Shown here: positions 59,169-62,952 of the stretch, in pieces | Numbering within the stretch: position 1 is the stretch's first letter | Layout of the letters: every line of letters begins with the position of its first letter | Assembly: GCA_052389315.1 (NCBI GenBank) | Contig: JBQTIE010000017.1 | Location: forward strand, 60,948-124,947 | Direction: 5' to 3' | Source: Acidobacteriota bacterium | GTDB taxonomy: Bacteria > Acidobacteriota > Vicinamibacteria > Vicinamibacterales > UBA2999 | DNA: 64,000 nt | Notes under the pieces: generated by a model | What the model was told of the DNA's origin: nothing | Databases searched by the model: none | Seen by the model: only the letters and a program-made list of their open reading frames with translations | Position numbers and translations under genes: made by a program

Positions 59169-60383
59169 GTGAGGCGCGCAGGGCCTCGACTCACGGACGT
59201 GCATAGCGCCAGCAACGAAGCTGAGTCGGGCCCCGGCGTCTGGCCGCTGCTACGCGCCGTCCTGGTCTCGGCCGTCGTCATCCTGTCGGCGCCATTCATC
59301 GGACAGTTCCGCGCGTGGCTCGGCGACGCGTTTCCGGGGCGCCTCGTCTTGATCGTGGGAGGCGGGGTGGCGGTCGCGGTGGTCGCGGCGCTGATCGTGG
59401 CGGTGGCGAGGATTCGCAGCCACTACGCGGCACGCTATGGGGCGATTGCAGGAGCGCTGGCGATCGCCACGATCTACGCCAGCGCCGTCGCGACAGGCTG
59501 GCCGGAAGTGGACGTCGTCGAGCGCGTGCATTTCGTCGAGTACGGCCTCATCGGCCTGTTGTTCTACCTCGCCTGGCGCCCTCTTGGCGATCCGTCGATC
59601 ATCGTGCTCCCCATGTTGGCCGGCGTGATGGTCGGCTCCGTCGAAGAATGGTTCCAATGGTTCATCCCGGTGCGCGTGGGCGAAGTCCACGATGTGGCGC
59701 TCGACCTGGTGGCGGTTGGCTGCGGCCTGCTCTTCGTGATGGGCGTTGACCCGCCGACGGTCTTCCGGAGACGACTGTCGGGCGAGTCCCGCGCCTGGCT
59801 TGGGGGCGTAGGCGGGCTCGCCGTGCTGGTGTCTGCGCTGTTCTTCAACGCCGTGCACCTTGGATACGACGTGTCGCGCGACGGCATCACGTTTCGATCG
59901 CACGCCACGGCGGCGCAACTGGACGCCCATGCGGCAGATCGTGCGGCCCGGTGGCGGACCGCTCCGCCGACCACGCTACGCCGCGTGTCCCGCGAGGATC
60001 AATACATGGACGAGGCCGTGTGGCACGTGCGCGCCCGCAACACCGCGCCGGACGCGTGGACGGCGTGGCAGGAGAACCGGATCCTGGAGCTGTTCTATGC
60101 GCCCGTGCTCGACACGCCGTCCTACATTTCGGCGACCGGGCATCGCTGGCCGGCGGAACAACGGAAGAGCATCGAGGCGCAAGTGGTCGGCGTCAACGGT
60201 TCGTATGTGAGCCGTGCCGAGCCCTACCCGGTGTTCGCATGGCCGAAACCCGTGTTCTGGACCGGCGTGTTGTCAGTGATGTCGGGTCTGGTGTGGACAG
60301 CGCTCCGAGAAAGGGGCCCTACGCGGCCTTCACATACACATCCACGGCCCAGGTCCACGTCTGGCTTCGACTCGCCAGCGTAA
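59169..60383 (+). CDS. VanZ-like multi-pass membrane protein
   Basis: ERVHFVEYG, VEEWFQWFIPVRVGEVHDV; several TM helices; start uncertain. Confidence 0.7.
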   Translation: MRRAGPRLTDVHSASNEAESGPGVWPLLRAVLVSAVVILSAPFIGQFRAWLGDAFPGRLVLIVGGGVAVAVVAALIVAVARIRSHYAARYGAIAGALAIATIYASAVATGWPEVDVVERVHFVEYGLIGLLFYLAWRPLGDPSIIVLPMLAGVMVGSVEEWFQWFIPVRVGEVHDVALDLVAVGCGLLFVMGVDPPTVFRRRLSGESRAWLGGVGGLAVLVSALFFNAVHLGYDVSRDGITFRSHATAAQLDAHAADRAARWRTAPPTTLRRVSREDQYMDEAVWHVRARNTAPDAWTAWQENRILELFYAPVLDTPSYISATGHRWPAEQRKSIEAQVVGVNGSYVSRAEPYPVFAWPKPVFWTGVLSVMSGLVWTALRERGPTRPSHTHPRPRSTSGFDSPA

Positions 60384-60972
60384 AACCGGCGTCGCCGACG
60401 ATGGCGGCGAGCGCGCTGGGAGGGTGCAGGTAGGTGCGAAACGGATTGCCCGACAGGTATCGCGTCAGATTCTCCAGCGCGAGGCCGGCACCGACGGTCC
60501 ATCGCGCGCGTGGATAGGAAAGCGCCACGCACCGGCGGGCGAGCCTCACGGCCGCGCGGAGGAGTGGCTCATAGCCCGCATAGCAGCACACGACGCGATC
60601 GAGCGTGACAACGGCGGCAGGGGAGAGACGGCCCGCCACGTCCACGAAGTCGCCCTCGATCCACGTCACGGCGTCCGGAAGGCCGCGGCGCGCGGCCTCC
60701 TCGCGGCCGGCCGCGACATAGGACCGCGACGCATCGACTGCGACGGCGCGGCTCAGTCCTGCCTGAAGCAACTCGAACGACAGCACGCCGACGCCGGCGC
60801 CCACGTCCAGAAGATCGCCGGACGTCACACCTGCGCGCACGATGCCGTCTCGTAATCGGCGCGTCGTGTCGCCCGGGCCGTTGGTCCGATAACTGCGCAA
60901 CTCCTTGGCGGCTCTTTTCGCACTGAACTGCCGGCCTGCACAGCTTTCGAATCCGCAACACGCGCCAGTCAT
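60319..60972 (-). CDS. Class I SAM-dependent methyltransferase with Cys-rich N-terminus
   Basis: MTGACCGFESC; LLDVGAGVG; VDAS; GDFV; DRVVCCY. Confidence 0.85.
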   Translation of the reverse strand: MTGACCGFESCAGRQFSAKRAAKELRSYRTNGPGDTTRRLRDGIVRAGVTSGDLLDVGAGVGVLSFELLQAGLSRAVAVDASRSYVAAGREEAARRGLPDAVTWIEGDFVDVAGRLSPAAVVTLDRVVCCYAGYEPLLRAAVRLARRCVALSYPRARWTVGAGLALENLTRYLSGNPFRTYLHPPSALAAIVGDAGFTLASRSQTWTWAVDVYVKAA

Positions 60973-61076
60973 AAGGAGGGGTTCAGAGGCTCTTGCCCGC
61001 CAACCTCAACCCGGCCTGCCTTCGCTCCACGCCCGCACGAGCTTTGCTCAGGGCCCCGCCTCAACTCTCCTGCGAT

Positions 61077-61859
61077 TCACGGCCTTGTGGCGATCAGGTT
61101 CACCCCGACGACGCCGTACCGGCGGGCCGTCCGCTCCTTCGATGTGCCACCAAACGGGTCGAAGCGATGCGTCAGCGCGACGTTGACGAACCCCACGTGC
61201 TCGAACGCCGGGACCATCTCTGCCTCCAGCAGAGCGCCGGCGATTCAACCCGTCCAGAGGTCGATGTCTGCGCGTGCGTCTTCGGACAGCTCGACGCCCA
61301 GTACGATATCCGCGATCTGCAGTCGGCCGCCGGGGCGGACGATGCGGAAAAGCTCGTCGAGCACGGCGTGCTTGTCGGGCACGAGGTTGACGACGCCGTT
61401 CGAGATGACGACGTCCACCTCCTGGTCTTCGACCGGCAGCGCGGTGGCGTCCGAGCGATGAAGGGCGACGTTCCGCAGGCCGGCTTCGGCGGCCCCGTCA
61501 CGCGCACGAGCGATCATCGCGTCGGTCATGTCGATGCCGATGGCGCGACCGCTGGCGCCGACTCGCCGGGCAGCGATCAGCAGGTCGGTTCCCGCTCCGG
61601 AACCCAGGTCCAACACCGTCGCGCCTTCCTCAACCCTCCGTACCAGGTGAGGGTTGCCGATGCCGGCAAACGAGGCAGTCACTGAATCTGGCAACGCGGC
61701 CAGCTCGGCAGGATCGTAGCCAAGCCGTTCGGCGGCGTACGCCGGGCCGCGATGAAAATGAAACGTCCCGCCAGGGTCTGAGGCAACCCGGGTGTACATC
61801 GCGTGCACGTCGGCGCGAAGGCGTTGAGTGTCGAGATCGACGGGGCAGATGAGCGCCAT
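61077..61859 (-). CDS. ArsM-like SAM-dependent methyltransferase, probable selenoprotein (TGA at 61245-61247 = Sec)
   Basis: VLDLGSGAG, GIDMT, DVVISNGVVNL, LWTG-TGA-IAGALLE; frame stays open for 55 more codons to TGA at 61077-61079; SECIS-like hairpin follows. Confidence 0.85.
61206..61242 (-). promoter_or_regulatory. Bacterial SECIS-like hairpin
   Basis: After UGA-AU: CGCCGG CG CUCUGCU-GGA-GGCAGAG AUGGUC CCGGCG; the G-starting apical loop begins after 17 nt from UGA. Confidence 0.75.
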
Positions 61860-61865
61860 AGGCGG

Positions 61866-61895
61866 ACGTTACGGCCGACCGAATTGATTCGTCAA
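61866..61895 (-). promoter_or_regulatory. Sigma70-type promoter, leaderless start for the Sec methyltransferase
   Basis: TTGACG-18 nt-TAACGT-6 nt-ATG; no SD. Confidence 0.6.
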
Positions 61896-61905
61896 GCCCC
61901 AGGCC

Positions 61906-62952
61906 CTACGGCAGATGTCGTGTGGCTTGGCGGGCGACTGCACCAGGGCGCACGGTTGCGGCCAGAAGCCCCGCCATCGCCAGCGCGACCATGCCCCAGA
62001 TCACCGGCACGGTCGCCGGCAACCGAACGACCCGACGCGGCTCGTCGCGGAGGGCGAACGGCAGCCGCCTCAGCGGTTTCCATGAGCCGAACGAGACGAT
62101 CTTCACGAAGGCCGTGGTCCACGCCGCCGGGTGCGCGAGCCACCGCCGCGACAGCCGTTCTGTCCAGATGACCTGTTCGGTCATGAGCAGATCGTGCCCG
62201 AAGACCAGCCACCGCCAGCAGAACTGCGAGAAGCCTCTGGACGGCAACCCGTGCAGTGCACGCGCGCGAGGCTGACACCACGCAGGGTAGCCCGCGCGCA
62301 GCAGCAGCTCATGGTGCCAGGTGCCGTGTCCTCGGCGTACGGTCATGCCGTCGGGCAAGGGATAACGTTGCAGGATCGCACGCCGAAAGGCGACGGCGTT
62401 GAACAGGTAGCCGCCGCTGCGGTAGAGCGTCCGCCTGTTCGAAAACGGCGGCATGCACCAGGTCAACAGAGTCGCGAGCCCATACAATCCGTTGCCCTCC
62501 ACCGTCGTTTCGCCGGAGACCACGCCGATCTCCGGGCGCTCCATGAAAGGTGTTGTCATCAGTCGGAGCCAGTCGTGACCGTAGCGACAGTCCGAGTCCA
62601 TGAAGAACACCAGCTCTCCGGTGGCTCGCCGGGCTCCCTCCGCCTTCGCGTCGTCATAACTGGACGCGCCGTCGAGCTGTTCGACACGAACCCACGGATA
62701 CGTCTGTCGCAGCGGCTCGACGAGCTCCGCGGGCACGTCTCCGCTGTTGAGCACGATGACTTCCTCGGCCCACTCCAGCGGCACGTCCTGCTGCCTGAGA
62801 TCTCCGAGTGCCTCGAGGATCGCTTCGGGGCCGGCCGCCGCAAGGTTCTCTGTTTCCAAGACGATGGAGAACGTGGGCCAGTCGGCGGGCCGGGCGCGCG
62901 CGTCTGCGCGCTCAGCGACGATGGTGGCTTCGTGCGGAACGGTTACGGTCAT
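61906..62952 (-). CDS. Glycosyltransferase family 2
   Basis: FSIVL, GARRATGELVFFMDSDC, C-terminal hydrophobic helices. Confidence 0.85.
   Translation of the reverse strand: MTVTVPHEATIVAERADARARPADWPTFSIVLETENLAAAGPEAILEALGDLRQQDVPLEWAEEVIVLNSGDVPAELVEPLRQTYPWVRVEQLDGASSYDDAKAEGARRATGELVFFMDSDCRYGHDWLRLMTTPFMERPEIGVVSGETTVEGNGLYGLATLLTWCMPPFSNRRTLYRSGGYLFNAVAFRRAILQRYPLPDGMTVRRGHGTWHHELLLRAGYPAWCQPRARALHGLPSRGFSQFCWRWLVFGHDLLMTEQVIWTERLSRRWLAHPAAWTTAFVKIVSFGSWKPLRRLPFALRDEPRRVVRLPATVPVIWGMVALAMAGLLAATVRPGAVARQATRHLP

Follow-up and report, generated by a model that had tools for sequence, protein, structure and literature searches.

An ArsM-fold methyltransferase with a predicted selenocysteine at the Cys224 position represents a widespread branch apart from canonical arsenite methyltransferases

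The window considered here is a 64,000-nt stretch of contig JBQTIE010000017.1 (assembly GCA_052389315.1) from an Acidobacteriota bacterium of the order Vicinamibacterales (UBA2999). On its minus strand lies a methyltransferase gene which gene callers end at an in-frame TGA and which we read as continuing through this codon by insertion of selenocysteine (Sec). With a probability of roughly 85%, the gene encodes a genuine selenoprotein of the ArsM fold that is not a canonical arsenite methyltransferase. Within the ArsM superfamily, the protein is part of a separate branch that is widespread and patchy in its distribution. The elements that make up the gene are the following:

61077..61859, minus strand: coding sequence of the predicted selenoprotein methyltransferase, 260 residues, with start codon ATG at 61857-61859 and terminal TGA at 61077-61079

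61245..61247, minus strand: UGA, predicted Sec codon, residue 205 at the ArsM Cys224 position, in the motif W-T-G-U-I-A-G-A-L (UxxG)

61206..61242, minus strand: predicted bacterial selenocysteine insertion sequence (SECIS), with upper stem 61218-61234, apical loop GGA 61225-61227 and a lower stem extending to 61206-61242

Under translation table 11, the open reading frame (ORF) 61245..61859 on the minus strand yields 204 amino acids with the C-terminus ...DIDLWTG, followed by the TGA at 61245-61247. Beyond this codon, 55 further sense codons follow in frame, IAGALLEAEMVPAFEHVGF...GVNLIATRP, up to the TGA at 61077-61079. A sequence-only reading of the stretch had proposed exactly such a hidden selenoprotein, with a frame running past the TGA at 61245-61247, and this proposal holds. 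Judged by its sequence, the gene is intact, and its predicted product is full length when UGA is decoded as Sec. This read-through product contains Cys5 (MALICP) as the sole cysteine among its 260 residues, is assigned by Pfam to the class I S-adenosylmethionine (SAM) methyltransferases (Methyltransf_31, 108 bits) and is matched end to end by full-length database homologues. An AlphaFold model based on 39 sequences reached a predicted local distance difference test (pLDDT) value of 92.9 and a predicted template modelling (pTM) score of 0.91. Residues 206-260 form a helix and two core strands in this model (pLDDT 86-98), while the N-terminal residues 1-10, including Cys5, are less certain (pLDDT 67). 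In a structure search, the best 13 PDB matches listed were all As(III) SAM methyltransferases (CmArsM, CrArsM and human AS3MT), with the CmArsM structure 4fr0 matching the model at an E-value of 6.5e-18 and a template modelling (TM) score of 0.72.

Comparison with relatives gave further support for decoding of the UGA. Two branch-specific peptide patterns matched at least 604 stretches in species-representative genomes, of which at least 590 were confirmed as relatives, and all locus-level counts rest on the best 80 of these. As one locus (L097) ends before the Sec site, 79 loci cover it. The site codon is TGA in 69 and TGC or TGT in 10 of them, so that homologues with either Cys or TGA at the site, which the sequence-only reading had suggested looking for, do exist. 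The frame stays open for 55-86 codons past the site in 78 of the 79 loci, which come from several phyla, and the residues G208, A209 and L210 downstream of the site are present in all 79 rows. The exception is L068, in which a one-base frameshift just past the SECIS (L068:3613-3680) closes the frame 21 codons after the TGA; this is probably an assembly error in that metagenome-assembled genome. Within the same order, an orthologue was found in 11 of 61 genomes, the own genome (G000) counted, each with one in-frame TGA. No orthologue was found in the same-genus genome that was sampled, and the gene is consequently accessory.

The hairpin following the TGA has the dimensions of a bacterial SECIS. 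The bSECIS model, as laid out in the available text of PMC13188914, comprises a loop of 3-9 nt with a G in the first two loop positions, an upper stem of 4-16 bp, a distance of 16-37 nt from UGA to loop and a minimum free energy of at most -7.5 kcal/mol. In the window, we found the 3-nt loop GGA, an upper stem of 7 bp (8 bp in most relatives), a UGA-to-apical-loop spacing of 17 nt and -9.6 kcal/mol for the upper stem, or -20.7 kcal/mol for the hairpin including the lower stem (61206-61242). All 70 TGA forms (the 69 loci and the window) carry a GCUCUGCN-GGA-NGCAGAGC hairpin located 13-31 nt after the U of UGA, forming 8 of 8 pairs in 53 sequences, 7 in 14, 6 in 2 and 5 in 1. The 10 Cys forms, which use different synonymous codons, make only 2-7 of the 8 pairs. 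Across the 70-sequence alignment, 96.6% of the cells are paired, and shifting the 3' partners by 1 to 3 columns lowers this share to 28-51%. Compensatory changes appear at two pairs, i.e., G-C to C-G in 3 sequences and C-G to U-A or A-U in 24 sequences, and the covariation score was matched by none of 500 shuffles. The two-stem hairpin with a GGA loop that had been read from the window sequence is thus conserved and covarying, and the combination of TGA, hairpin and open downstream frame in 69 of the 79 loci goes well beyond chance. Two points speak against the decoding signal: the 81-nt region is no more stable than its shuffles (z = -0.94), and coding constraint limits the covariation support, with compensatory change at only 2 of 8 pairs. 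As the fold energy of the 81-nt region is not significant, it is conservation and covariation that support the SECIS.

These data bear on the simplest alternative, according to which the TGA is a true stop, the gene is either a pseudogene or the source of a methyltransferase truncated at 204 residues, and the downstream frame is a relic. This is what gene callers annotate, and in fact 112 of the 120 best database matches stop exactly at the Sec site (77-78% query coverage; deposited as about 204 residues). A relic would hardly explain a downstream frame kept open in nearly all covering loci with an invariant G-A-L, nor the ordered helix and strands which the residues behind the site form in the AlphaFold model. 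Moreover, a Cys codon takes the place of the TGA in 10 loci, and the hairpin is confined to the TGA forms. We therefore regard a true stop as highly improbable; open frames, Cys codons and hairpin rule it out as far as sequence analysis reaches.

The own genome encodes the machinery for Sec insertion, i.e., selA (455 bits), selB (351 bits) and selD (352 bits), all above their family cut-offs, together with a tRNA-Sec with the anticodon TCA. The sel genes that the sequence-only reading had proposed to look for are accordingly present. The selD gene (contig C325:690-1610 of the own genome, locus L011; TIGR00476, 352 bits) itself contains one in-frame TGA, and selenophosphate synthetase (SelD) is probably a selenoprotein in this organism as well, as far as its gene sequence tells.

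A further alternative would be that TGA took the place of TGC/TGT through a mistake in sequencing or assembly, or that it is read as Trp or Gly in an alternative genetic code. The 8 full-length proteins among the 120 best database matches carry C (4), W (2), G (1) or R (1) at the site, and the W in two and the G in one of them could be taken in favour of recoding. These W and G residues may stem from source pipelines that translate TGA by codes 4 or 25. The gene's own terminal stop is a TGA, the site aligns with Cys and not with Trp, and the Sec machinery encoded in the genome is complete, all of which argues against another code. Concerning an error, contigs from other samples of the same study (X2 record 12; X3 records 22 and 23) span 61245-61247 with 0 differences in a cross-check that used the DNA runs of this one study, so that the codon reads TGA there as well and the error considered by the sequence-only reading did not materialize. 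Together with the TGA in 69 independent assemblies, these unchanged contigs rule out both variants of the alternative, to which we assign a negligible probability. In the metagenome, many short contigs of other organisms align at 90% or more solely to 61218-61268, a segment comprising the SECIS, the UGA and the DLW codons. The summed depth over this segment is raised about fivefold, which points to nucleotide-level conservation among community members, and no variant was seen at 61245-61247.

Regarding its relation to ArsM, the protein shares the fold (TM 0.67-0.72, about 30% identity) and the SAM-binding motifs with canonical ArsM/AS3MT structures (4fr0/4fs8/4kw7, 5evj and human AS3MT 8xt7), and differs from them in its cysteines. 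ArsM contains four conserved cysteines (Cys44, 72, 174 and 224 in CmArsM), of which Cys174 and Cys224 make up the metalloid site (PMC6138428, available text), and a published survey counts a protein as ArsM when at least three of the four are present (PMC5552862, available text). In HMMER alignments to CmArsM 4fr0/4kw7 and CrArsM 5evj (E-value 9.4e-25 for 5evj), the Sec codon falls on Cys224 (GEC[LV]xGAL), I67 (GIGNP) on Cys72 (GCGS/GCGNP) and G155 (ISNGV) on Cys174 (ISNCV), whereas the Cys44 region is replaced by FHFHRG. By fold and similarity the protein thus is of the ArsM type, while of the four cysteines it keeps the Cys224 position alone, as Sec. Eukaryotic ArsM/AS3MT additionally have a large C-terminal domain, which is missing from the window protein.

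The same pattern runs through the 79 branch rows. Position 67 is V, I, T, M or L and never Cys, G155 is found in 78, residue 205 is Sec or Cys in all 79 and Cys5 is present in 66; H34 occurs in 78, F35 in 79, H36 in 77, R37 in 70 and G38 in 79. At the sequence level, the branch is hence marked by HFH(R)G at residues 34-38, G(V/I)GNP, ISNGV and LW(T/A)(G/A)-U/C-(I/V)(A/G)GAL. The earlier claim that the other ArsM cysteine positions are replaced and an N-terminal cysteine is left could be confirmed against solved structures, and applies throughout the branch.

The enzyme could still methylate arsenite or methylarsenite as ArsM does and differ from it only in using Sec; Sec205 and Cys5, perhaps joined by His34/His36, would then form its metalloid site. 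All best sequence and structural matches being As(III) SAM methyltransferases, and Sec sitting at the arsenic-binding Cys224 position, speak for this option, as does the name "arsenite methyltransferase" given to the catalogued selenoprotein family in the available literature (see below). Furthermore, Cys174 and Cys224 alone suffice for the methylation of methylarsenite (MAs(III)) in CmArsM according to the available text of PMC6138428, which makes a two-ligand site conceivable. However, 78 of the 79 rows have Gly in place of the partner in that pair, Cys174, and none has Cys72. The protein consequently fails the rule of three out of four cysteines, and with 222.5 bits it also stays below the cut-off of 263 of NF008823, its best-scoring NCBIfam model, and reaches the cut-off of no other NCBIfam model either. 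The genome moreover already holds a canonical module elsewhere: on contig C186 (locus L102, 1007-2340), a canonical ArsR (140 amino acids, minus strand) is encoded divergently from a canonical ArsM of 281 amino acids, which scores 363.5 bits with NF008823, displays CC..C, GCGNP, ISNCV and GCVAGAL and ends in CCAPSCCR. This ArsR-ArsM pair is the real arsenite methyltransferase module of the genome, and the window gene therefore constitutes a separate paralogue. When the natural Cys-form homologue P0024 was run against the ESM Atlas, every cluster retrieved bore the name arsenite methyltransferase or simply methyltransferase.

ArsM-type selenoproteins with Sec at UxxG are not new as such, having been catalogued since 2007 according to the accessible parts of the literature. 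A family "arsenite methyltransferase" with the Sec motif UxxG, placed under PRK11873/NF008823, is given in PMC13188914, whose table credits it to Fomenko et al. (2007, Science 315:387), and is also listed in PMC9312934 and PMC2398784. The window protein shares with this family the ArsM fold, Sec at the Cys224 equivalent (here U-I-A-G) in a UxxG of a PRK11873-like methyltransferase, a SECIS just downstream and the existence of Cys homologues. It differs from this family in its score, which stays under the NF008823 cut-off, and in the absence of three of the four ArsM cysteines, a comparison which was drawn with the family's description and not with the sequence of a representative, so that the catalogued members may or may not keep Cys72 and Cys174.

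Also comparable are the families described by the models ArsM_AhpD_UU (NF041537), ArsM_DUF2284_UU (NF041536) and MTase_UXPK_star (NF047649), which PMC13188914, in its available text, credits to Haft and Tolstoy (2025). The window protein scores 219 bits (cut-off 510), 207 bits (cut-off 575) and 192 bits (cut-off 460) with these models, in each case above the canonical ArsM of its own genome (184, 168 and 183 bits, respectively). Their methyltransferase domain aligns from residue 8-10 onwards, including HFH(R)G, and Sec is likewise found at UxxG. Unlike ArsM_AhpD_UU and ArsM_DUF2284_UU proteins, the window protein lacks a second Sec as well as any AhpD or DUF2284 domain, and it is thus the stand-alone, single-Sec form. 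A second Sec at the terminal TGA, as in the UXPK-star type, was considered and rejected: no xPK tail follows the terminal stop, and the terminal stops of the orthologues vary (TGA, TAA, TAG) without a conserved tail. The literature covered contains no account of an ArsM-like selenoprotein branch devoid of both Cys72 and Cys174, nor a substrate assignment; Fomenko et al. (2007), Kim (2009; PMC2671064), Haft and Tolstoy (2025; PMC12013261) and supplementary files lay outside this coverage, and these papers may bear on the matter.

To place the Sec and Cys forms, a quick maximum-likelihood tree was calculated from 79 branch members and the canonical ArsM of the own genome as outgroup, leaving out L068 and L097. 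The 10 Cys forms make up one group nested among the Sec forms (Shimodaira-Hasegawa-like approximate likelihood ratio test, SH-aLRT, 96), and the window protein is sister to that of L022 (98). Phyla are intermixed in the tree, which suggests transfer. A Sec ancestor with derived Cys forms is only a lead at this stage, given a quick tree with a long outgroup branch that samples the best 80 of at least 590 loci.

The immediate surroundings of the gene in the window comprise two GT2 glycosyltransferase genes upstream, putative promoter elements and a second methyltransferase gene (MT2) downstream:

61866..61895, minus strand: promoter-like elements, with -35 TTGACG at 61890-61895, an 18-nt spacer, -10 TAACGT at 61866-61871 and 6 nt to the ATG

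60319..60972, minus strand: MT2, second SAM methyltransferase of 217 amino acids, 104 nt downstream (Methyltransf_25, 35.9 bits)

The window gene has no Shine-Dalgarno motif, whereas a motif of this kind precedes 64 of 69 orthologues. Two loci (L022 and L034) display the layout TTGGAC/TTGACG, N17-18, TAGATT, N6, ATG and are likewise without a Shine-Dalgarno motif. This common geometry makes a leaderless transcript of the Sec gene plausible from the sequence. A sigma-70 consensus scan of 60200-62100 detected no promoter, so the earlier suggestion of a leaderless promoter is supported by the shared layout and not by the scan.

MT2, which the sequence-only reading had rightly pointed out as a second, Cys-rich methyltransferase, starts with MTGACCGFESC and reached no NCBIfam family above cut-off. 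Among 8 aligned homologues, the N-terminal Cys-Cys is invariant, and F..K.A..DL..YR.KGPG and DRV(I/V)CCY are shared motifs, which amounts to two vicinal cysteine pairs. In 8 of 81 loci, counting the window, the Sec gene is followed on its own strand by an MT2 homologue, and MT2 is probably the operon partner of the Sec gene. The other homologues were located at L080:3786-4499, L082:3761-4447 and L044:3783-4436, as well as in L040, L064, L066 and L024.

For the wider neighbourhood, reference neighbours were searched by tblastn in 81 loci, the window being one of them:

MFS transporter: 15 of 81 loci

MBL-fold protein, closest to glyoxalase II (GloB) and the Blh sulfur/persulfide dioxygenase, both below cut-off: 12 of 81 loci

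MT2, second methyltransferase: 8 of 81 loci, window included

DsrE: 7 of 81 loci

Cupin: 6 of 81 loci

Protein of unknown function with ExxH motifs: 6 of 81 loci

MddA: 5 of 81 loci

LysR regulator: 4 of 81 loci

SQR-like flavoprotein: 3 of 81 loci

1-Cys peroxiredoxin: 3 of 81 loci

At least one of MBL, MddA, DsrE and SQR occurs in 24 of the 81 loci, and no neighbour is universal. Scores of 332-366 bits (cut-off 270) were obtained for three MddA genes, two of which stand directly upstream on the same strand. These three are found beside Cys forms (L090:995-1765 and L075:2129-2890) and beside a Sec form (L034:1118-2014, minus strand). A SQR-like gene (L027:1205-2482) scores best with the NCBIfam model "type III sulfide quinone reductase, selenoprotein subtype" (232 bits, cut-off 525); a DsrE/TusD-like gene (L027:2498-2860) is located between it and the Sec methyltransferase, and SQR-like genes lie near the methyltransferase in L025 and L088 as well. 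In a Pfam tally of 524 ORFs within 1 kb, rhodanese was counted at least 6 times, the ArsR-type helix-turn-helix (HTH) at least 7 times, beta-eliminating lyase four times, class-V aminotransferase twice and SBP56 once. The ArsR-type HTH genes, near at least 7 loci, would fit an arsenic enzyme. Against this, none of ArsC, ArsB, Acr3 and ArsH reached two members in batches 1, 2 and 4 of the tally, with batch 3 listed down to families of two members and thus able to hide one, and the window gene itself has no ars-gene context such as that of canonical ArsM.

Fusions provide a second view on function. Among 120 longer relatives surveyed, 113 keep Cys at both the 72 and the 174 position, and all 25 fusions to ArsD, ArsR, Acr3, ArsA, LMW-phosphatase, aquaporin or AhpD belong to these 113. 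The remaining 7 bear the branch signature and are fused to MFS, an ICMT/PEMT-like membrane methyltransferase, the ExxH protein, DUF2652 (with or without ATP-grasp), DUF2064 or a low-complexity tail; an ars-type domain occurs in none of the 7. The ars-type fusions are all canonical. We consider the arsenite alternative introduced above unlikely, and the branch probably acts on something other than arsenite as far as can be told from sequence comparison.

Individual fusions and neighbours deserve mention. In P0192 (461 amino acids), an ICMT/PEMT-like membrane methyltransferase is fused to a branch member; the deposited protein ends with ...SLWTG and is thus cut at the Sec codon, which by its sequence makes it an unannotated fusion selenoprotein. 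The idea that its N-terminal domain is a true MddA is unsupported, since the 25 of 29 matches listed connect this domain with ICMT/LmtA-like models alone, at about 38 bits. In some relatives (G001:C33:2447-3226; P0123, 631 amino acids), the upstream MFS gene and the Sec methyltransferase share one frame with no stop in between, and such MFS-methyltransferase fusions are likewise deposited as cut at the Sec codon. The ExxH protein of about 315 amino acids, without a Pfam or NCBIfam match, is encoded directly upstream of Cys forms in 6 loci (e.g., L093:2027-2971, L087:1964-2920 and L095:2028-2969) and is fused to a Cys-form member in P0122, where its two E..H motifs give it the look of a di-iron protein.

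Taken together, neighbourhood and fusion pattern speak for a non-arsenic role, with hints of reactive sulfur or selenium. Reactive sulfur or selenium species (sulfide, sulfane sulfur, selenide or Se(0)) are the most likely candidate substrate, at somewhat less than even odds. Arsenicals (arsenite or methylarsenite) are the next candidate and rather unlikely, while a substrate of some other kind would come as no surprise, with about one chance in three. In its full form, the proposal is more tentative: the branch could have derived from the ArsM fold as a Sec-dependent methyltransferase for reactive sulfur or selenium, and not as an arsenic enzyme, whose selenolate captures sulfane sulfur or Se(0), delivered by DsrE or rhodanese carriers or produced by SQR, as a Se-S(e) adduct, with methylation by SAM and a second methylation by MddA or MT2. 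We regard this specific scheme as possible and rather doubtful in its entirety. The sequence-only reading had envisaged a Sec-dependent methyltransferase whose substrate or mechanism differs from ArsM. The departure from the ArsM definition, a canonical ArsM elsewhere in the genome, no recurrent ars neighbours and no ars-type domain in the 7 branch-type fusions speak indirectly for this view; what the enzyme would methylate, and how, is the conjectural part.

Known systems offer a partial parallel. MddA, MddH and MddM1/MddM2 (PMC11445057 and PMC12904073, available text) share with the proposal the SAM-dependent methylation of small soft nucleophiles, and MddA also shares context, as bona fide genes adjoin the branch gene in some loci and an ICMT/PEMT-like enzyme is fused to it in P0192. 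However, MddA is a membrane enzyme of the ICMT type and MddH, MddM1 and MddM2 are of the UbiE/UbiG type according to these texts, and the window protein probably belongs to none of these families. For MddA (NF045656), no match appeared among the 25 listed of its 63 NCBIfam matches, while MddH and MddM were set apart by description.

Several observations weigh against a sulfur or selenium role. The signal from the neighbourhood is weak and stands without a background control; MBL, MFS, DsrE, SQR and MddA are all absent beside the window gene; and the MBL and SQR neighbour matches remain below their family cut-offs. MddA and the Sec gene do not go together across the 61 genomes of the order, with the Sec gene present in one of the three genomes that bear a bona fide MddA, and the own genome contains an MddA-like paralogue of 145 bits only. 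The ArsR-type HTH genes near at least 7 loci would also be compatible with a metalloid role. Moreover, the H2S and methanethiol methyltransferases MddA, MddH and MddM1/2 need no active-site Cys or Sec, as described in the available text of PMC11445057 and PMC12904073. Finally, Cys5 is absent in 13 of the 79 rows, and is hence not an obligatory resolving residue.

A possible catalytic route can be sketched. UGA codon 205 would be read as Sec by SelB and Sec-tRNA(Sec), guided by the apical SECIS loop 17 nt further on, which would place Sec205 beside the methyl group of SAM, where Cys224 of ArsM holds arsenic. The selenolate of Sec205 could then tether a soft nucleophile through a Se-X bond (X being S, Se or possibly As), and SAM would methylate X. 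Product release might be achieved by Cys5 on the flexible N-terminus, with subsequent re-reduction of Cys5, or by an external thiol or thioredoxin-type partner, in parallel to the disulfide cascade of ArsM as far as it is described in the available text of PMC6138428. Such a redox partner would be in keeping with the fusions to AhpD that NCBIfam names and with a DsbA-like cluster of fusions in the Atlas. With a sulfur or selenium species as substrate, the product would be methanethiol or methaneselenol, which could be methylated once more by MT2, or by MddA in other loci. The tethering role of Sec205, the role of Cys5 and the substrate are all parts that we infer.

The finding is relevant for the annotation of such enzymes. 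Because public annotation cuts the protein at 204 residues, as in 112 of the 120 best matches, inventories miss the gene or mislabel it as "arsenite methyltransferase". This affects selenoproteomes as well as methyltransferase inventories of Acidobacteriota, Burkholderiales, Binatia, Chloroflexota and others in soil and groundwater. Homology-based counts of arsM could likewise include a branch that is unable to bind arsenic in the way ArsM does. If the sulfur/selenium reading is true, a Sec-dependent enzyme would be added to volatile sulfur and selenium cycling, and with it an unrecognised, widespread route to volatile sulfur or selenium compounds in soil and groundwater. The branch would in that case also offer a clean example of Sec being used over Cys at a substrate-tethering position.

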